Part shown: piece by piece, positions 26,966 through 64,000 of the stretch
Layout of the letters: every line of letters starts with the position of its first letter
Position numbering within the stretch: the stretch's first letter is position 1
DNA from: Heptranchias perlo
Taxonomy: Eukaryota
NCBI RefSeq assembly: GCF_035084215.1
Contig: NC_090327.1
Location: forward strand, 90,954,001-91,018,000
Direction: 5' to 3'
Length of the DNA stretch: 64,000 nucleotides
Notes under the pieces: generated by a model
Seen by the model: only the letters and a program-made list of their open reading frames with translations
Told to the model about the DNA's origin: nothing
Databases searched by the model: none
Position numbers and translations under genes: made by a program

Positions 26966-27755
26966 TTTTTTTTTTTTTTTATTCGTTCACGGGATGTGGG
27001 CGTCGCTGGCAAGGCCGGCATTTATTGCCCATCCCGAATTGCCCTTGAGAAGGTGGTGGTGAGCCGCCTTCTTGAACCGCTGCAGTCTGTGTGGTGACGG
27101 TTCTCCCACAGTGCTGTTAGGAAGGGAGTTCCAGGATTTTGACCCAGCGACAATGAAGGAACGGCGATATATTTCCAAGTCGGGATGGTGTGTGACTTGG
27201 AGGGGAACGTGCAGGTGGTGTTGTTCCCATGTGCCTGCTGCCCTTGTCCTTCTAGGTGGTAGAGGTCGCGGGTTTGGGAGGTGCTGTTGAAGAAGCCTTG
27301 GCGAGTTGCTGCAGTGCATCCTGTGGATGGCACACACTGCAGCCACAGTGCGCCGGTGGTGAAGGGAGTGAATGTTTAGGGTGGTGGATGGGGTGCCAAT
27401 CAAGCGGGCTGCTTTATCTTGGATGGTGTCGAGCTTTTTGAGTGTTGTTGGAGCTGAACTCATCCAGGCAAGTGGAGAGTATTACATCACACTCCTGACT
27501 TGTGCCTTGTAGATGGTGGAAAGGCTTTGGGGAGTCAGGAGGTGAGTCACTCGCCGCAGAATACCCAGCCTCTGACCTGCTCTCGTAGCCACAGTATTTA
27601 TATGACTGGTCCAGTTAAGTTTCTGGTCAATGGTGACCCCCAGGATGTTGATGGTGGGGGATTCGGCGATGGTAATGCCGTTGAATGTCAAGGGGAGGTG
27701 GTTAGACTCTCTCTTGTTGGAGATGGTCATTGCCTGGCACTTATCTGGCGCGAAT
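26966..27755 (-). mobile_element. CR1-group LINE family B, 3' fragment (young)
   Basis: Poly(T) at 26966-26980. Near-identical to the 3' part of 45801-46846. ORFs 27482-27730 and 26987-27463. Confidence 0.92.
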
Positions 27756-27771
27756 GAAAGGGGAACATTAT

Positions 27772-29781
27772 GGGACCGATTTTAGCAGGGCTGCGGGTTC
27801 TCGGCGGATGGGCTAGCGGGCGCGTGGGTAACGCGCCCGGTGAAATTAGTGGGTTTCCCGCGCGATCGTAGCAGGCGAACCACTAATTGGATTCACTTAC
27901 CTGCTCCTCCGGGTTCCCCGATGCTGATCTGTGCGTCGGGCGGGCTGCGCATGCGCAGTAAGATCTGTCAGCTGGAGGCGCTCTATTTAAAGGGGCAGTC
28001 CTCCACTGACAGATGCTGCAACCAATAGCAAAGATGACTGCATGGAGCAGCCCAGGGGGAAGGCTGCTCCCAGTTTAATGATGCCTCACCCCAGGTATCA
28101 ATACATGGGGTGAGGAGGAGGGGGAGGACAGAGAACTTCCACCCGGCGGGCGGGAGGAAGCGGCCCGCCTCCGCCACCAGGAAGGCCTGGCTCGAGGTGG
28201 CAGAGGGGGTCACATGCGCCACCAACATATCGCCCACCTGCACACAGTGCAGGAGGTGGTCCGATGACCTCAGTAGGTCAGCCACAGTAAGTACACGTAG
28301 TCTTTCCCCTACACTCCGTCTGCCACATCACTGCCCCCACCCCACATCTCCTTCGGCACTGCCAACACTACTCTGTCACATCACCCCTCATACCCACTCA
28401 AACCCCATCCTCATCTTACCTCCACCTACTCACCTCGCCAGTACTCACCCCGCCACTACCACGCAACCCAATCCTCATACAATCTCATGGCTCTATTTCA
28501 TACTCACCCTCTCGTGCATCTCTCTCACGGCCAGCCTCACTCAACCTGCCACCACCCGTGCTGCAGCCACAGGGCATGCATCACATATGTGCAGTAGGCA
28601 GCGTAAGGCAAACGTGTCGTGAGCATGAAGGGGATGCACAAGAGTGTTTGAGGGTTTGTCATGGTTGTTACTTATATTGAGTTTCAGAACAACTCATCTC
28701 ACACATTATATTGGCACCACTACTGCCATGTCTTCGCGAATCATGTCCGGTTTGTGCAATAATGCCCGCTCCTGGGTATCACTATGGGGACCCACCACTG
28801 ATGCCACCCATTGTGTCACTGCAGAGTGGGTGTAGGTGTATTTGCAGGGCTCTTCTGCGCAGACGACTGAGAGACATTGGGGATGTCCCCGGTTGCACCC
28901 TAGAAGGCTGCGGAGGAGAAGTTCGGGAGGGCAGTGGTGACTTTGACAGCGACAAGTAGGAAGATGGTGCACGGGCCAGCCAGGAGCAGCTCGGCATGAA
29001 AGAGGCTGCAGATGTCCACGGCTACATGTCGAGTGACTCTGAGCCTCCGTGTGCACTGCTGCTCAGAGAGGTCCAGGAGGCTGAGCCTCGGTCTGTGGAA
29101 CCTGTGGCGAGGGTAGTGCCCTCTGCGACGCATCTCTCTCTGCGGTAGCCCTCCCTCCTGCTGTGCAGGTGGATGTGTCACAGCACTCTGTTGTGTCAGA
29201 GGTGGACGGCGTGGATGGCGAGGCTGGTGATGCTGTTCGCCCTCCGAGGAGCTCATGACCGCAGCTACGGCAGCCCCCATCCGCAAGATGTACATCTGAG
29301 GGGGTCCGCAAGCTAGGTACATGTCTCCGGACCCCGGGGTAAGTGTGCAGGTTGGTGACTTTGACCATCAGGAGGAGGGTGGTGGAGGCCAAACTTTGTC
29401 CCAAGTGACAGAGTGGCCTCCTGCAATGGGTGAGGGTTTCCCCCCCCACAGGCTGACAGCTGCAACACGTCCATTCGAGCTGGGAGTGTTTCCCCCAGTG
29501 TGGGAAACAGTCCCATGTTGTTCCAAAATCCCACATAGTCCCTTAATCAGGTCAGTTAATGACCTGAAATACCTAACTAAATATTGTCAAGTGGCATCCC
29601 GCTGGCTTTAATTGCCTGCGGGATTCCCACCAGCGGGGGCTGCGTGCGCATGCCGGCGCGTCAGCGGGGAACCCGGAAGTGGGCGGGATCGAGGTGGGAT
29701 CCGGTCCCGCTCCTGGATTTCCCGATTTTCGGGCCCCCCCCGCCGAGAACGCACCCGATAGCGGGTCGTAAAATCGAGCCC
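27772..29781 (+). mobile_element. Non-autonomous Harbinger element with convergent Myb/SANT (+) and transposase (-) stubs
   Basis: TIRs gggaccgatttta / taaaatcgagccc with TSD TAT at 27769-27771 and 29782-29784. Myb exon ~28042-28286 ends in GTAAGT. Transposase N-terminus RPRLSLLDLSEQQCTRRLR...VAVKVTTAL (ORF 28900-29322). Confidence 0.88.
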
Positions 29782-37647: not shown

Positions 37648-38404
37648 ATGATTTTTACCACTTCATTTTCATAAAATCGGGATAGCTAAAACATTCCCTT
37701 TTATGCAGTGTCCCCTTCATTAAGGTCAAAGCATCGAGAAAAGTTTGCCCAAAAATAAATAGCTATAATTACCTACTGTTGCAAACTACTATAATTGGCC
37801 CTGGCACTGGTCCTGAAGGAATCTTTTATTTTAGAGTATGCTGGAAAATTTAGCAAAATTATCCTTTTTTTTTCTTCTTGTGAGTCAGCGTACATTCCAG
37901 ATTATTATTTTGATAAAATCAGTAATATGAAGAGTGAACTTTTTATATTCTCTGCTACTTTAATCCTCAGGCTATCAGCAGATCCTGGGAGCTGGCTGTT
38001 TCCTTCGGGTGGCCGGTTTTATAAGTTTTCGCCTAAAATACTGTACCGGACAATGACGCGAAATTCCACTGGGGTTCTCCTGGCCTACCCCCATAATTTC
38101 CGTGGGAGATTAACACACCGCCCCGAGAGAAACAGCGTAAACAGCTGCAATGTTTCTCTGGGAGTTTCCCAGGTCTCCTGCCAAATTTATGGTAAGAAAC
38201 AGGGAGAACCCCCATGGAATTTCAGAGCCATTATGACGGTCAAGTTTCTCCAATCTCATGAGTAGCATTGTTACTGTAATATTGACAACAAGGAGAATGA
38301 CAGCTTTATTTCTGATCAATTTTTCATCTCTTTGACCACACAAATCAACATCTCGCATTTGTATAGCACCTCTAAGAGGTGCAAAACATCCTACGGGGCT
38401 TCAC

Positions 38405-44383: not shown

Positions 44384-47381
44384 GGGCTCCATTGTAGCAC
44401 CCGGTATCGGGTGTGTTCCTGGCGGGGGGGCTCCGAAAATCGGGGAATCCCGGAGTGGGTCGGGAGCCAGCAATTAAAGCCAGCGGGGTGCCACTTAACA
44501 ATATTTATCTAGCTATTTCAGGTCATTAACAGACCTGATCAAGGGAATATGTCAGGAGGGGTGGGATTTTAGAAACAACTGGGACTGTTTCCCAAACTAG
44601 GGGAAACACTCCCTGTTGAAATGGACGTGTTGCAGCTATTAGCCTGTGGCAGCTGCAAAGGTCCATTTGACAGGTGTGGGGGGAGACCCTCACTCATTGC
44701 AGGAGGCCACTCTGTCACTTGGGACAAAGTTTGGCCTCCACCACCCTCCACTTGACAATCAAATTCACCAACTTGCACACTTACCCTGGGGTCCAGAGAC
44801 ATATACCTACCTTGCAGACCCCCTCAGATGTACATCTTGCGGATGGGGGCCGCCGTAGCTGCAGTCATGACCTCCTCGGAAGGTGAACAGCATCACTAGC
44901 CTCGCCGGCCAAGCCGTCCACCTCTGACACGTGGAGCTCCACAACACAGTGCTGTGACACATCCACCTGCACAGCAGGAGGGAGGGAAACCGCAGCGAGA
45001 GACGCGTTGCAGGGGGCACTACCCTCGCCACAGGGTCCACAGACCGAGGCTCAGCTTCCTGGACCTCTCTGAGCAGCAGTGCACACGGGGGTTGAGCGTC
45101 ACTCGACATGTAGTCGTGGACATCTGCAGCCTCCTTCATGCCAAGCTGCTCCTGGCTGGCCCGAGCACCATCTTCTTACCTGTCGCTGTCAAAGTCACCA
45201 CTGCCATCAACAACTTCTCCTCCGCATCCTTCCAGGGTGCCACCGGGGACATCACCGACGTCTCTCAGTCGTCTGCACAAAAGAGCCCTGCAAATACACC
45301 TACACCCACTCTGCAGTGACACAATGGGTGGCATCAGGTGTGGGTCTTCATTGTGATCCTCAGGAAAGGGCAATATTGCACAAACCAGACAAGATTTGCA
45401 AAGACGTGGCAGTAGTGGTGCCAACATAATATGTGATGTGAGTTGGTCAGAAATCAATAGAAGTAAAATCCATGACAAACCCGCAAACACCCTTGTGCAT
45501 CCCCTTCATGCTCACAACACGTTTGCCTTACGCTTCCTACTGCACATATGTGATGCATGCCCTGTGGCTGCAGCACAGGTAGTGCCAGGTTGAGTGAGGC
45601 TGACCGTGAAAGAGATGCATGAGAGGGTGAGTATGTGATAGAGCCATGAGATTGTATGAGGATTGGGTTGAGTGGTAGTGGTAAGGTGAGTAAGTGCAGG
45701 TAAGATGAGGATGAGCTTTGAGTGGGTGTGAGGGGTGATGTGACAGAGTAGTGTTGGCAGTGCAGAAGGAGATGTGGGGTGGGGGCAGTGATGTGGCAGA
45801 TGGTAGTGGTTGTTGGAGGCCAATCATCTCAACCCCAGGGCATTGCTGCTGGAGTTCCTCAGGGCAGTGTCCTAGGCCCAACCATCTTCAGCTGCTATAT
45901 CAATGACCTTCCCTCCATCATAAGGTCAGAAATGGGGATGTTCGCTGATGACTGCACAGTGTTCAGTTCCATTCGCAACCCCTCAGATAATGAAGCAGTC
46001 CGAGCCTGCATGCAGCAAGACCTGGACAACATCCAGGCTTGGGCTCATAAGTGGCAAGTAACATTCGCGCCAGGTAAGTGCCAGGCAATGACCATCTCCA
46101 ACAAGAGAGAGTCTAACCACCTCCCCTTGACATTCAACGGCATTACCATCGCCGAATCCCCCACCATCAACATCCTGGGGCTCACCATTGACCAGAAACT
46201 TAACTGGACCAGCCATATAAATACCGTGGCTATGAGAGCAGGTCAGAGGCTGGGTATTCTGCGGCGAGTGACTCACCTCCTGACTCCCCAAATCCTTTCC
46301 ACCATCTACAAGGCACAAGTCAGGAGTGTGATGGAATACTCTCCACTTGCCTGGATGAGTGCAGCTCCAACAACACTCAAGAAGCTCGACACCATCCAAG
46401 ATAAAGCAGCCCGCTTGATTGGCACCCCATCCACCACCCTAAACATTAACTCCCTTCACCACCGGCGCACTGTGGCTGCAGTGTGCACCATCCACAGGAT
46501 GCACTGCAGCAACTCGCCAAGGCTTCTTCGACAGCACCTCCCAAACCCGCGACCTCTACCACCTGGAAGGACAAGGGCAGCAGGCGCATGGGAACAATAC
46601 CACCTGCACGTTCTCCTCCAAGTCACACACCATCCCGACTTGGAAATATATCGCCGTTCCTTCATTGTCGCTGGGTCAAAATCCTGGAACTCCCTTCCTA
46701 ACAGCACTGTGGGAGAACCGTCACCACACGGACTGCAGCGGTTCAAGAAGGCGGCTCACCACCACCTTCTCGAGGGCAATTAGGGATGGGCAATAAATGC
46801 CGGCCTTGCCAGCGACGCCCACATCCCGTGAATGAATAAAAAAAAAGACGGAGAGTAGGGAAATGAGTGTACTCACTTTGGCTGACCTACTTAGGTCATT
46901 GGAGCGCCTCCTGCACTGTACGCAGGTGGGCGATATGTTGGTGGTGCAGGTGACCTCCTCTGCCACCTCAAGCCAGGCCTTCCTGGTGGCAGAGGCAGGC
47001 CACTTCCTCCCACCTGCCGGGGGGAAGATCTCTGTCCTCCCCCTCCTCCTCACCCCATCTAATGACACCTGGAATGAGGCATCATTAAACTGGGAGCAGC
47101 CTATCTCCTGGGCTGCTCCATGCTGTATTTTTTCCGATTTGTTGCAGCATCAGTCAGTGGAGGACTGCCCCTTTAAATAGGGCTCCTCCAGCTGACAGAC
47201 CTTACTGCGCATGCGCAGTCCGCCCGACATGCAGATCAGCAGCGGGGAACCCGGAAGACCAGGTAAATGGATCCAATTAGGCTGCGATCGCGCGCGGGGC
47301 AGACTGACTTCGTCAGGCGTGTTATCCACGTGCCCAATAGCCCCCCCGCCGTAAACCCGCAGCCCTGGCAATATCGAGCCC
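44384..47381 (-). mobile_element. Second copy of the 2-kb non-autonomous Harbinger, inverted relative to 27772-29781, with a LINE in its Myb intron
   Basis: TIRs gggctccattgta / caatatcgagccc with TSD TTT at 44381-44383 and 47382-47384. Transposase stub on + (44954-45319: VAVKVTTAINNFSSASFQGATGD); Myb exon on - (~46876-47121). Confidence 0.88.
45801..46846 (+). mobile_element. CR1-group LINE family B, 3' fragment with an uninterrupted RT C-terminal frame
   Basis: ORF 45779-46783 (PQGSVLGP, FADD) and aatgaat plus A-tail. Inserted at ggcaga|cggag of the Harbinger intron. Confidence 0.93.
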
Positions 47382-48293: not shown

Positions 48294-48480
48294 GGGGAGA
48301 ATTTCAACCTATCCGACCCAGTGGGAAACTGACAGGATCGGATCAACCGCCCATTTTACACCATGACTGATTTTACTTTCCATTGAAATCAGTGCAATGT
48401 AAAATCAAGCGGGGTGTAAAACGGACGGTTGTCGGATCTTGTCAGTTTCCCGCTGGGCCAGAAAGGTTAAAATTATCCTC
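48294..48480. mobile_element. Palindromic MITE (~187 bp)
   Basis: Nested inverted blocks across the whole length: cccagtgggaaactgacaggatc / gatcttgtcagtttcccgctggg, ttttacacc / ggtgtaaaa, tgattttac / gtaaaatca. Confidence 0.75.
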
Positions 48481-56345: not shown

Positions 56346-56643
56346 TGTGATAGTATTCTGACCGATTTCATTGCCTGAAGACATGCGGAGATCAAAAGAG
56401 TCACTCCAGCATGAGACCAGGCACCTATTTACATGTCACTGCACTGATATGTAACAAAAGCCCAATCTGGAAGTGGTTTCCTACAGGAATTATATCAATG
56501 TGGCTGTGTGATGGAGGTAGGGGAAAAGGGAATTCCAATGCCAGGATGACTCTGAGGACTGATCCTGCTGGAATGACTCCCAACATTTGCTTGGATTTGC
56601 AAGCAAGGTATTGGTGAAGGAAGCTCTGAATTGAAAAAACAAG

Positions 56644-56814
56644 ATGTGGAGATGCCGGTGATGGACTGGGATTGACAATTGTAAACAATTTTACAACACC
56701 AAGTTATAGTCGAAAAATGTGGAAATTCACCTGAGGAAAGAGGAAGCCTTCGAAAGCTTGTGGATTTTAAAATAAAATTGTTGGACTATAACTTGGTGTT
56801 GTAAAATTGTTTGC
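56644..56814. mobile_element. Mini Penelope derivative (tail, partial inverted arm, hammerhead arm)
   Basis: Starts atgtggagatgccggtgatggactggg like 1734 and 61494. TSD aattgaaaaaacaag at 56629-56643 and 56815-56829. Confidence 0.9.
56727..56763 (+). ncRNA. Hammerhead ribozyme motif (slightly degenerate stem II)
   Basis: tcac CTGAGGA aagagg aag ccttc GAAA gctt gtgg. Confidence 0.6.
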
Positions 56815-57462
56815 AATTGAAAAAACAAGGAATGGTAGATCAGCAAAAGGCTGGAAGGTCAATGAAAATAAATCAAAAGGAGTAAAGATTTAGAAACACC
56901 TAAGGTTTTCAGAAAAAAGGATGAGGTTTATGAATGAAGCTCTAATAGTCTAATCATTTTGGAAAATGATTAACTTGTGTTGAATGGTTTTGCAGAAAGC
57001 CAGTGAGAAGGAAGAGTTACACAAACCAAGCTGCTTCTTCACTGGAGGAAGAAGGATGTAAATACGACAGTCACTGAATTTTTTCTCCAGTATTTGAACT
57101 TTCATCTGAATTGGATATCCTATCAATTCAGTGCTGTCGTTCTTCTGCTGTAGATTTGGGAGTAATTTCCAATTTCGCTGCCTGGGTGGTAACCTGGGAG
57201 AGCAGATTGCCCACCCTTTAGAGAACCCAGTAGAAATCAATGGATGACCAAAAATCAGGGAGGTTCTACAGTTGTGTTGGCAATCCATTCCTCCAGGTTA
57301 CTGTCCAGGCAACAAAGTTTAAAATGACCCCCTTTATATTGATTATTTCATACTCAATCCTGCATTCTGCCAATGCACAAAGCCCTCGTGCCAATTAAGG
57401 CATTTCTAATGGACCTCCCTTGATAGCAATAGCATGGAAGTGACAGAGAATTAAAAGAAAAA

Positions 57463-60877: not shown

Positions 60878-61580
60878 CTAGTGTTAAAAGAGATAAGACA
60901 AGGACAGAGCATTTAGCATAGAAGTTGCAAAAAGCCAAAGCATCAGGTCCTTTGTATTGACTATGTTTAATTCATAGCCAAAGAATGCCACTCTTTATTT
61001 TGCTCAATACAAGCACACAGTACCACTCATAATAATTTATTTGTCTACTCAAAATGTATCAATATTTTCCTGGCCTTTTAAAAAATTATTACATTTAAAA
61101 TGATATAGAAGGTAGATTGGATGTTCACTCCACCATAAATTCCAATATAGCGAATTATAATCAGTAGAACACTTAGGATGCCACAGATTTTCATTGTTTA
61201 CTGAATTATGATTGCACCTGTCAGATTATAAAACATTTGAGTGATATTTGTGACACTCTGCCTGCAGTGAAAATGAAAGTATAGTGCAAATTATATTTCT
61301 TATAGGGCAAGAGGCCCCCCCCACCACCACCACCCCGCCGCGACATGCCTAAGCTTTTGCATCTGGCAACACTAATTCCTTAAAAATGCTGCAAATAGCA
61401 CTGAATGTAGTGGCCATCATATAATCTCTTTGCAGACCATCAAACTGCTTTTACATTGTACGTATTGTAAGAGCACAATTTTAATCTGTGTTGATGTGGA
61501 GATGCCGGTGATGGACTGGGGTTGACAATTGTAAACAATTTTACAACACCAAGTTATAGTCCAGCAATTTTATTTTAAAT

Positions 61581-61617
61581 TCACAAGCTTTCGGAGGCTT
61601 CCTCCTTCGTCAGGTAA
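61581..61617 (-). ncRNA. Minimal hammerhead ribozyme motif (csmd3 sense strand)
   Basis: ttac CTGACGA a ggagg aag cctcc GAAA gctt gtga on the minus strand. Confidence 0.8.
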
Positions 61618-61621
61618 ACAT

Positions 61622-61658
61622 TTACCTGACGAAGGAGGAAGCCTCCGAAAGCTTGTGA
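61622..61658 (+). ncRNA. Minimal hammerhead ribozyme motif
   Basis: ttac CTGACGA a ggagg aag cctcc GAAA gctt gtga. Confidence 0.8.
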
Positions 61659-64000
61659 ATTTAAAATAAAATTGCTGGACTATAACTTGGTGTTGTAAAA
61701 TTGTTTACAATTAATCTGTGTTGTAAGTGTTTAATGTTGGAGTTTGCAATCAAAGAAGAAAGCGTTAAAACAGTTGTACATCATAATGTGGCAATCTATA
61801 AGCAAACAAATAGGCAGCCAGGTTTTAAAGATAGGAAAATCATTGGAAATCAAACAGTTAGAGTTTGCCGGTCTTCTGAATTCTACTTTTACCAACAGAT
61901 TCCTGGCAGGAACAGAATCGCAGAAAGTTACGGCACAGAAGCAGGCCATTGTGTCCATGTCAGCCGAAAAAGAGCTATCGAGCTTAATCCCACTTTCCAG
62001 CACTTGGTCCGTAGTCCGTAGCCCTGTAGGTTATGGCACTAACCTATTTAGGAACTATTTACGGAACCTATTTAGTTAATTTAGCATCAGGCCTAACTTT
62101 CTTCAAACATCACTTCTGATGCAGAAATTTGTGTTTGGCAGGCGTAAGTGATGAAAGTACATTCCTCAAACGATGCAACAATGAGATGTCACGCTGTCTT
62201 CTTTCACGCTCCAACACATCTTTTAGCAGGAGGTCATAAATGTCATCTCTGTGGAATATCAAATTGGGAGAATGTAACGGTCTCCCAGTTGACTGTGATC
62301 ACAAAGCTTGTGAAAGTGTTAAGGTTATTTGAGAAATATACTCAGGGTATGAGATGCCACATAACCTCACTGAACCAAGACTTTCAAATTATGCAGGTAT
62401 TCCAGTACATCATAAGGTCCAGTCACGTAACACAGCTTGTGCCAACGCGAAGTGGTTTTGTCTTCTTACTGACACAAACTGGGTACTGTTATTCAGATAT
62501 GAAGTCACCTGAATTGAATTTCGGAAAGCAAAGTGAAGCTTAGCTTGTTTTCTTTACACTTCTCAATCAGATGGATTGAAGAAGGGTACAATCCAGACCA
62601 AGAACTAATGTTGACAGTACTATATATTATTAGATAATCCCGTGTCCCCAAGAGTATGGCATATTAACACATAATCCTGTGTTCCCACCCTCCACCCATT
62701 CCAAATCAAAACTTTCTCTCTATACCCAGTTATGTGCAACAACCAAGCTTTCCCAACCACTACTGATTCTAGGTCTCAAAATGTTTATATTACCTAATTT
62801 TCATATCTCCAAGAAAGAGTGGTGTAATTTAAATAAGAACCCTTTATGCCTAATGACACTGTTCATACAGAATGCGATCAGTGCACAGGCCAGTCAACAT
62901 TCACACATAGACCTGTTATATAACAAATATATGTAATTTCACTGATTTTTGGAGGGGTTTGTAATCCCCTTTTTCAATATGCAATATATATGGCTACATT
63001 TAGAAGAGGGAGAGTGGCTATAAATATGAGAAGGCAATTGTCTTGATTTTCCTCGTTGGGCTGCCAGATTTCAGGGATTCCCAGGTGGCCAACAGAGGAA
63101 CATTTAGGTGGGGCGGAGGATGAAGATCAGCGATCAGGCCTCCATACTAGAAATATCCTGGTGGATTTTCCTCTTTATCTCTTGCAGTTCGACTCGCAGC
63201 ATGTTTACGATGATAGGTGGAGGGGCCACATTTGGGCCACATTTCCCTCTCTTATCCCTCAGCAGCCATCAAAGGTAGAGAATGCCTGAGGGGAAGAGGC
63301 CTTATGGATCTGTCTACAGTGAGCTCTATCTTTGAAGACCTCAAGGGATGCGCAGTAGCCTTAAGATAAATATTTAAATTTTATTACTTAAGTTTTTCAA
63401 ACTTTAAAAAAAAGTTTTTTTTGAGAGTTTTATGAAGTTTTACTACATATCTTAAACATTTTTTAAAAAAAAGCTTTTTAAGTATGTAAAAAGTATATTT
63501 AAGAATTTTAAGTATTTTTAAAGTTTTCATGGTGTACATTCACTTTAATCTTGGGGACCAGACCTCAGGAATGAATGGGATCTTCTTTAGGCCTCCACCT
63601 ATTCCTCTGTTTTGAAGAGAAAGAGAAGGGGCGAAGGGGATCAAGAAGCCAAGGCAAACAGGCGCCACAAATGGTCTTGGGGTCCCTGATGTTTCTTCTT
63701 GCAGGAAAATCCCTCACCTTGTCCCAAACCATTTGCACACATCCCATCAATGACAAAAACATCTTACTAACAACAAATCTGACATCTTTCTTACTGTGTG
63801 AGGCTGCAATGGCTCCTCTTGGTGCTTACTGGTAGGTCCCATTTCAATCATAGCCTCTATTTCGCCTACAGTAGCAGGAATTTCTGATGTATTTGACTTA
63901 TGATTTGCAGCAGTAACTTTGGCGGAATTGAGATGGTATTTTCTTTTCTTTGACTGTGGGCTATTTCCCCTTTAACAAGAAAGTAGAGTCTGAAGACTCA

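Follow-up and report, generated by a model that had tools for sequence, protein, structure and literature searches.

The window analyzed here is a 64,000-nucleotide stretch of the Heptranchias perlo genome, and near its end, at 61481-61723, lies a short hairpin insert flanked by a direct repeat (Table 1). An inverted-repeat search of the window found two 92-nt arms (61527-61618 and 61621-61712) that are 100% complementary and stand 2 nt apart. This is the sole perfect long hairpin among the nine inverted repeats in the window that are at least 25 nt long and have arms no more than 400 nt apart. The direct repeat, TTAATCTGTGTTG, occupies 61481-61493 and 61711-61723 and encloses 217 bp (61494-61710), made up of a 33-nt tail followed by 92, 2 and 90 nt. 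The right 92-nt arm and the right target-site duplication (TSD) share 2 nt, the TT with which the TSD begins. Re-measurement reproduced every part of the geometry given in an initial annotation of the window (92-bp perfect arms, 2-nt loop, 33-nt tail and 13-bp TSD).

With an inverted pseudo-LTR (pLTR), a tail of 30-40 bp at one end and a TSD, the insert has the layout of insertions made by endonuclease-bearing (EN+) Penelope-like elements (PLEs). It is not a MITE, which would be bounded on either side by terminal inverted repeats and by a short TSD of fixed length, whereas here one end is an unpaired tail and TSDs are 11-18 bp long. Nor does it have the head-to-tail tandem repeats with one hammerhead per unit of a non-LTR retrozyme; it is single and head-to-head. 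We numbered the source element from the first A of the untailed arm (+1). On this scale the insert, hereafter a stub, is +5..+129 reversed, then +1..+94, with an overlap of 2 nt, and 61619-61620, which look like a 2-nt loop, correspond to +3/+4 of the untailed arm.

Table 1. PLE-derived features of the window, with positions relative to +1 of the source element
Feature	Position	Strand	Description
Long PLE insertion, another subfamily	1735..4305	+	inverted tailed arm 1735-2104, 5'-truncated RT/EN ORF, untailed arm ending at 4305
Second, older PLE stub	56631..56829	.	13-bp TSD, tail, short tailed arm, filler, one complete hammerhead arm; asymmetric
Left TSD, 13 bp	61481..61493	+	last 2 nt (TG) also match element +130/+131
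PLE tail, 33 nt	61494..61526	-	+129..+97 of the 5'UTR; stops 2 nt before the ORF ATG (+131)
Tailed arm	61494..61618	-	exact reverse copy of intact element 5'UTR +5..+129 (125/125)
Minimal type I hammerhead motif	61579..61619	-	core CUGACGA starts at 61613
Junction	61617..61618	.	2-nt microhomology AA common to both arms (arm overlap 2)
Untailed arm	61617..61710	+	exact copy of +1..+94 (94/94); first base is the putative transcription start
Minimal type I hammerhead motif	61620..61660	+	stem I 61620-61625/61655-61660, core 61626-61632, extra A 61633, stem II 61634-61646, GAAA 61647-61650, GCUU 61651-61654; predicted cut after 61654 (+38)
Right TSD	61711..61723	+	first TT also matches element +95/+96

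The TG that the left TSD shares with the element is likely a priming microhomology, and the tail would, by analogy with a related element discussed below, be the stretch between two start sites of reverse transcription. The untailed arm begins 30 nt after the TATA box of the parent copies, and the TATA box itself is absent from the hairpin.

Other repeats surround these features. The long PLE copy sits inside a LINE-type repeat with a TSD of about 12 bp, and fragments of LINE type occupy 6191-9074, 10926-12189, 26971-29781 and 44384-47376, with frames at 6191-9074, 10926-11813 and 45752-46783 that encode endonuclease or RT domains. Degenerate hairpin repeats (70-83%) at 48296-48478, 57158-57332 and 38060-38223 are unrelated to PLEs and possibly old and MITE-like.

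The initial annotation had the hairpin mobilized in trans by the PLE family at 1735-4305. We ruled this copy out as source or helper on three grounds: it is only 86-88% identical over the hairpin's region, it is truncated at its 5' end and it has a stop codon at 3231-3233. The source is found instead in intact copies elsewhere in the genome. At two loci (L292 and L294) a 3,066-bp unit carries an uninterrupted frame of 902 aa, and the leader of this unit matches both hairpin arms at 100% identity. The annotation's view of the insert as very young, derived from Penelope, flanked by a TSD and made by PLE machinery is supported. Pfam assigned RVT_1 to the 902-aa ORF (E=3e-10) and returned no GIY-YIG match in it; we recognized the GIY-YIG motif (VVYLI..WYIGET) by eye, and on this reading the source element has an RT together with a C-terminal GIY-YIG in one ORF, as an EN+ PLE does. 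A CxxxxCxxC linker (PCHGNLCKTC) precedes the EN motif. A Zn-finger-like linker between RT and EN marks the Neptune or Nematis clade (PMC8557442), and judged by this motif the source is a PLE with a linker of the Neptune/Nematis type.

Long copies have the order TATA box, hammerhead, arm end, tail, ATG and ORF. In source coordinates, the TATA box lies at -30, the hammerhead at +4..+44 with its core at +10 and a predicted cut after +38, the arm end at +94 and the ATG at +131. Intact 902-aa frames occur at L292, L294 and L285-L288, either single, with a pLTR and an inverted arm, or in tandem arrays of 2-3 units of 3,081-3,085 bp. The stretch from -45 to +30, with the promoter spacer and stems I and II, diverges strongly between subfamilies, while that from +31 to the ORF start is near-invariant. 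Both core variants occur with each promoter type, which suggests exchange or strong constraint.

The hammerhead that the annotation placed in each arm is present on both strands as a sequence motif. Each strand has a 6-bp stem I, CUGACGA, an extra A, a 5-bp stem II, GAAA and GCUU, and the palindrome AAGCUU replaces helix III. On the minus strand the first base of stem I is supplied by the other arm and pairs as G-U. Across 457 natural arms stem II runs through a G-C / G-U / A-U series and 5' variants of stem I still pair; together with this covariation, the core, helices I and II, the extra base after A9 and the helix III palindrome are those of a minimal PLE hammerhead. Rfam returned no hammerhead match for the hairpin, only sub-threshold models that were mostly miRNA precursors, and nothing at all for a single 5'UTR. 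This silence is expected because the motif has no helix III. Within the native leader, the hammerhead stems have predicted pair probabilities of 0.77-0.99. When the whole hairpin is folded as one transcript, the predicted hammerhead structure lies about 64 kcal/mol above the minimum and its pair probabilities are 0.0.

The cut site of the hammerhead sets no arm ends. An apparent excess of ends there was dropped as a candidate: 152 matches end at the predicted cut and 225 and 200 at neighboring positions, and after point variants were removed by eye (about 21, 44 and 50 of the first 100 of each) the estimates became about 120 at the cut against about 125 and about 100. The annotation's description of a ribozyme-only unit overlooks that the arms are an mRNA leader with two putative RT start sites.

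We searched the 3.25-Gb genome for related sequences. At least 19 places are identical across all 217 bp (DNA search, among the 40 scored of 786 candidates), and the 30-nt junction has 91 matches genome-wide. A single arm motif has 9,239 matches, with many different fold-back points among the first 100. Two facing hammerhead half-cores lie within 30 nt of each other at 9,149 places, and the first 50 of these show more than 40 junctions by eye. The hairpin is one of about 9,150 double-hammerhead stubs in the genome, and probably does not form a separate family.

To define where arms end, we examined 97 of the first 100 of 576 matches to the tailed arm in the hairpin's subfamily (contigs C1-C3; the last three listed were left out). 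The last letter of the search pattern drops some arms. The pattern also forced arms to reach +5 and excluded ends 3' of it, so only the upstream edge of the distribution is unbiased. This edge is sharp: 47 arms end at +1..+5, 2 at -1 and 6 at -4..-11, while 29 end at -15..-1445 and 13 run out of the locus. The short tailed arms number 55. An inverted partner accompanies 43 of them, and of the 12 that stand without one, 11 stop at -1..+5. The initial annotation had also considered the hairpin a repeated product of extreme 5' truncation; the repetition holds, and random truncation does not, given a sharp stop 29-30 nt after the TATA box.

A second set, drawn from other subfamilies, comprised 83 arms at loci from the first 100 of the 9,239 matches, 26 of them long and 57 short. 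Its main subfamily accounts for 35 of the short arms, which extend beyond the hammerhead edge by 16 nt in 10 cases, by 15 nt in 6 and by more in 3. The first two groups, 16 of 35 ends, fall at TATA positions 30-31. The arm edge is thus 29-30 nt from the TATA box in both subfamilies, whereas its distance past the hammerhead is 15-16 nt in the second and 8 nt in the hairpin's own. Because arm ends keep the TATA spacing and not the hammerhead distance across the two subfamilies, +1 is probably the transcription start of the element, as read from motif spacing and cDNA ends. A TATA promoter is not universal, since Penelope of D. virilis is described in PMC2377424 as having a TATA-less internal promoter. 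The C found after +1, a candidate for a cap-templated base, equals the parent base in one subfamily and is mixed in the other. In a set of 40 stubs of the hairpin's subfamily, several copies have an additional T following +1. In contigs of putative RNA runs, loose ends near +1 proved to be a one-base variant, not a fold-back, and were set aside.

The two arms of an insertion belong to the same length class. Two-arm insertions comprised 43 short-short and 19 long-long pairs and no mixed ones (Fisher p 2e-16), so that stubs are 43 of the 62 resolved two-arm insertions in the sampled subfamily. In the long pairs the arm ends correlate (rho 0.59, p 0.008), with 8 of 19 within 15 nt of each other, although alignment breaks may shorten some arms.

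Considered together, we think it likely that the hairpin, two exact head-to-head copies of a PLE leader, is a dead-end by-product built anew at each landing by run-off of reverse transcription at +1. The element protein would nick both target strands, 12-13 bp apart, and each nick would prime a cDNA; the two start sites used would be separated by about 35 nt, one near +95 and the other near +130 at the ORF start. Among copies with the same junction as the hairpin, 1-4 nt of target homology is often seen at the priming positions. On a linear RNA template that begins at the TATA-driven site, both cDNAs would reach +1 and run off once 94-130 nt had been copied. End joining by the host would then anneal the terminal TT of one cDNA to the AA four bases into the other. 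Longer templates would give, by the same chemistry, the known copies with an inverted pLTR plus tail. The hammerhead would be carried along uncut because it lies within the leader, and the stub is predicted not to propagate because it has no promoter and would fold into a 92-bp duplex.

Part of this scheme has a precedent. For a Poseidon PLE, PMC11167929 describes nicking and extension of both strands, reverse transcription from two internal sites that bound the tail, uncut RNA as the main template with 5'-shortened RNA giving shorter products, and a protein predicted to be a dimer. Two-site priming would have to carry over between clades, from Poseidon to an element with a Neptune/Nematis linker. 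Both cDNAs may come from one RNA molecule, against which stand hybrid stubs with arms from different subfamilies, at L040 and at G000:C1:10761516 (one clear case, by eye, among the first 50 of the 9,149 places).

The alternative that survives best, though we regard it as unlikely, is self-priming, in which one cDNA or an antisense template loops on an end stem of 2-3 bp and copies itself. The junctions are tiny palindromes, the arms agree in class and sequence, and the junction with the tail on side B can be depicted as a short loop closed by a 2-bp stem; such palindromes are the basis on which Arkhipova et al. 2013 (PMC3846280) argued for self-priming on an antisense template. The letters of the junction do not separate the two readings, since fold-back in cis and annealing in trans are expected to give identical ones. 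The shapes of the insertions do, however, speak against self-priming. A self-primed copy cannot exceed its template or add a tail, yet of the 19 long pairs, 5 have an untailed arm that exceeds its partner by more than 40 nt and 6 have a tailed arm that does so. Genome-wide, same-junction copies have their tail on one arm in 32 cases and on the other in 33. Arms can be hybrid, as at L040, and both outer ends lie at defined element positions beside the TSD. A mixed course, with two primings and a fold-back at the join only, may also apply.

That the stop near +1 reflects stalling of RT at an RNA structure, either the base of stem I or an upstream 10-nt palindrome, seems to us quite unlikely. The position would suit it, as +1 lies 3 nt from stem I and beside the palindrome, which three stubs of the hairpin's subfamily use. 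In the second subfamily, however, the edge is 8 nt further from the hammerhead with the TATA spacing kept, and whole-unit cDNAs (below) traverse the site unstopped in 32 of 32 cases, plus nine times within the array at L289.

Very unlikely, in our judgement, is a self-propagating MITE- or retrozyme-like family in which a 217-bp unit is copied from a master hairpin. The initial annotation had raised such a family and had taken many identical junctions as a sign that the unit itself is copied. The 91 exact junctions and the 19 or more full-length identities fit it, and copying of hairpin RNA from both start sites with loop mismatch repair could even give the 1:1 tail side. The identical junctions are thus there, but the inference from them fails. 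The 40 subfamily stubs have 22 junctions, of which the type at 61481-61723 accounts for 13, split 6 to 7 between the two tail sides, with 3 for each of the two that follow, and the three commonest are 2-nt microhomologies available from ends at +1, +3 and +4. The hairpin's join also recurs in two other backgrounds, where both arms carry the variants of that background. In 57 same-junction copies the tail end ranges from +127 to +140, running into the ORF start; 12 of the 55 with a TSD have 4-8 nt more tail than the window copy, reaching the ATG, and at L018, L024, L139 and L144 the extra tail reaches later codons (second or third). No substitution is shared by any two of the 57, a comparison of low power because the copies are almost invariant, with only six single substitutions seen overall. 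Apparent shared variants at L148 and L160 were noise of ungapped alignment from short duplications and were rejected. The copies have neither fixed ends nor a master-like structure, the hairpin has no TATA box, and in its RNA the start sites and hammerhead are predicted to be buried in a duplex of -155 to -166 kcal/mol, with zero probability for the hammerhead stems. A junction variant with CG in the loop occurs at L028 and L029. Perfect palindromes can arise in sequencing libraries, and an assembly fold-back had been named as a refuting case, but we give it almost no credence because 55 of the 57 same-junction copies carry their own, unique TSD of 11-18 bp (mostly 12-13), next to an unpaired tail and fixed element ends at a structure found in 9,149 places.

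The run-off reading accounts for the stubs; long copies point to another kind of template. We examined 60 loci in which the leader runs into the ORF (30 of 121 and 30 of 577 matches), and 32 of them continue at least 300 nt into the ORF. Thirty of these 32 keep the upstream TATA box and 2 end a few bases upstream of +1. No whole-unit copy starts at +1 (0/32, against 49/97 tailed arms; p 2e-8), although some of the 32 are array neighbors and most belong to sister subfamilies. Since none stops there, the long copies would need a template that does not end at +1. Full units in arrays of 2-3, and a 9.5-fold array of a 404-bp unit, likewise pass +1 seamlessly. The long-copy template may be a hammerhead-cut ligated circle, a multimeric read-through RNA or the result of jumping from one terminal repeat to another. 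A circle formed by hammerhead cutting and ligation is the proposal of Cervera and de la Pena (PMC4209133).

We tentatively suggest, as a possibility that we hold to be somewhat doubtful, that two template classes exist. An uncut linear RNA would give 'strong-stop' hairpins by the thousand, which would locate the transcription start with single-base precision. A transcript longer than a unit would be cut by its two hammerheads and ligated into a circle, around which RT would roll, with a dimer making both cDNAs from a single RNA. If this is true, a circular template would explain the regeneration of the pseudo-LTR and of its upstream promoter, and would give the hammerhead a function.

Two loci add detail on arrays and jumps. 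The 404-bp unit at L289:1357-5183 (G000:C2, near 21.27 Mb) is repeated 9.5 times with 0-1 differences per unit inside an 11-bp TSD. It is an internally deleted PLE with a TATA box, a leader with hammerhead, an ORF start and a 3'UTR, in a retrozyme-like array. One variant is common to the two 3'-most units, which argues that arrays also change after insertion. At L091 a tailed arm reaches +1, continues with +135 of a second template and then folds back, a three-arm stub with a template jump.

The origin of PLE inverted repeats, tails and pseudo-LTRs and the role of the hammerhead are stated as open questions in PMC8557442, PMC2377424 and PMC7761336. Schostak et al. saw no evident way in which pseudo-LTRs could be regenerated (PMC2377424), and the hammerhead's role is called unknown in PMC7761336 and in PMC7229834, which defines retrozymes as tandem repeats. 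The inverted-plus-tail layout, TATA/Inr motifs in pLTRs and dual minimal hammerheads on opposite strands have already been published. In the literature searched, which was in part accessible and lay outside subscription papers, Repbase and Dfam, we found no description of run-off stubs at the start site, of the pairing of arm classes or of evidence for two templates, and the parts of PMC5753468 and PMC8969392 at hand contain nothing on such hairpins. What appears new is the sequence-based evidence that stubs terminate at the transcription start and that the long copies derive from a second class of template.

Minimal products of natural origin, about 9,150 in number, stand in this genome beside intact 902-aa copies and a 133-nt leader, which make two-primer run-off and the choice between linear and circular templates directly testable. 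Each stub inserts a perfect 92-bp inverted repeat into the genome, and such stubs would lead repeat annotation to a spurious MITE-like or miRNA-like family; that 91 copies share an identical junction does not prove self-propagation.

The closest relatives in print are EN+ PLE insertions. As described by Craig et al. 2021 (PMC8557442) and Arkhipova et al. 2013 (PMC3846280), these have head-to-head arms with an inverted pLTR that is truncated at its 5' end, a tail at one end, a TSD and a hammerhead, like the hairpin, and their pLTRs have TATA/Inr-like motifs, a layout also found at 1735-4305, L292 and L294. The hairpin differs from the published inverted-pLTR PLEs in that both arms are leader only, have no promoter and end at a sharp edge. 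PAc, a Poseidon PLE of Anolis (Frangieh et al. 2024, PMC11167929), resembles our model in having two RT starts that bound the tail, nicking and extension of both strands, uncut RNA and AT-rich targets. In PAc the ORF starts at stem II and reverse transcription begins 111-118 nt into it, whereas here the ATG (+131) lies at the end of the tail. PAc also differs in clade by the linker motif, and the consulted main text of PMC11167929 is without run-off stubs.

Minimal PLE hammerheads, as described by Cervera and de la Pena in 2014 (PMC4209133), are like those of the hairpin in having no helix III, a palindromic 15.2-16.2, an extra base after A9 and G10.1-C11.1. The same source reports dual minimal motifs on opposite strands 100-700 bp apart, probably truncated PLEs; in our hairpin the cores start 13 nt apart and the origin is traced to a leader and a start site. 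Non-LTR retrozymes, described in PMC7229834 (Cervera and de la Pena 2020), are likewise short, non-coding and hammerhead-bearing with a large TSD, but they are head-to-tail repeats with canonical hammerheads and circles, while the hairpin is single and head-to-head with a minimal hammerhead.

The 9.5-fold array at L289 is far closer to a retrozyme than the hairpin is. The stub may also be likened to the minus-strand strong-stop DNA of LTR retroelements, a short cDNA copied from a primer site inside a terminally redundant RNA up to the capped 5' end of that RNA. This likeness is an analogy only: for the stub, target DNA would prime at two sites, and the product would be captured in the chromosome.
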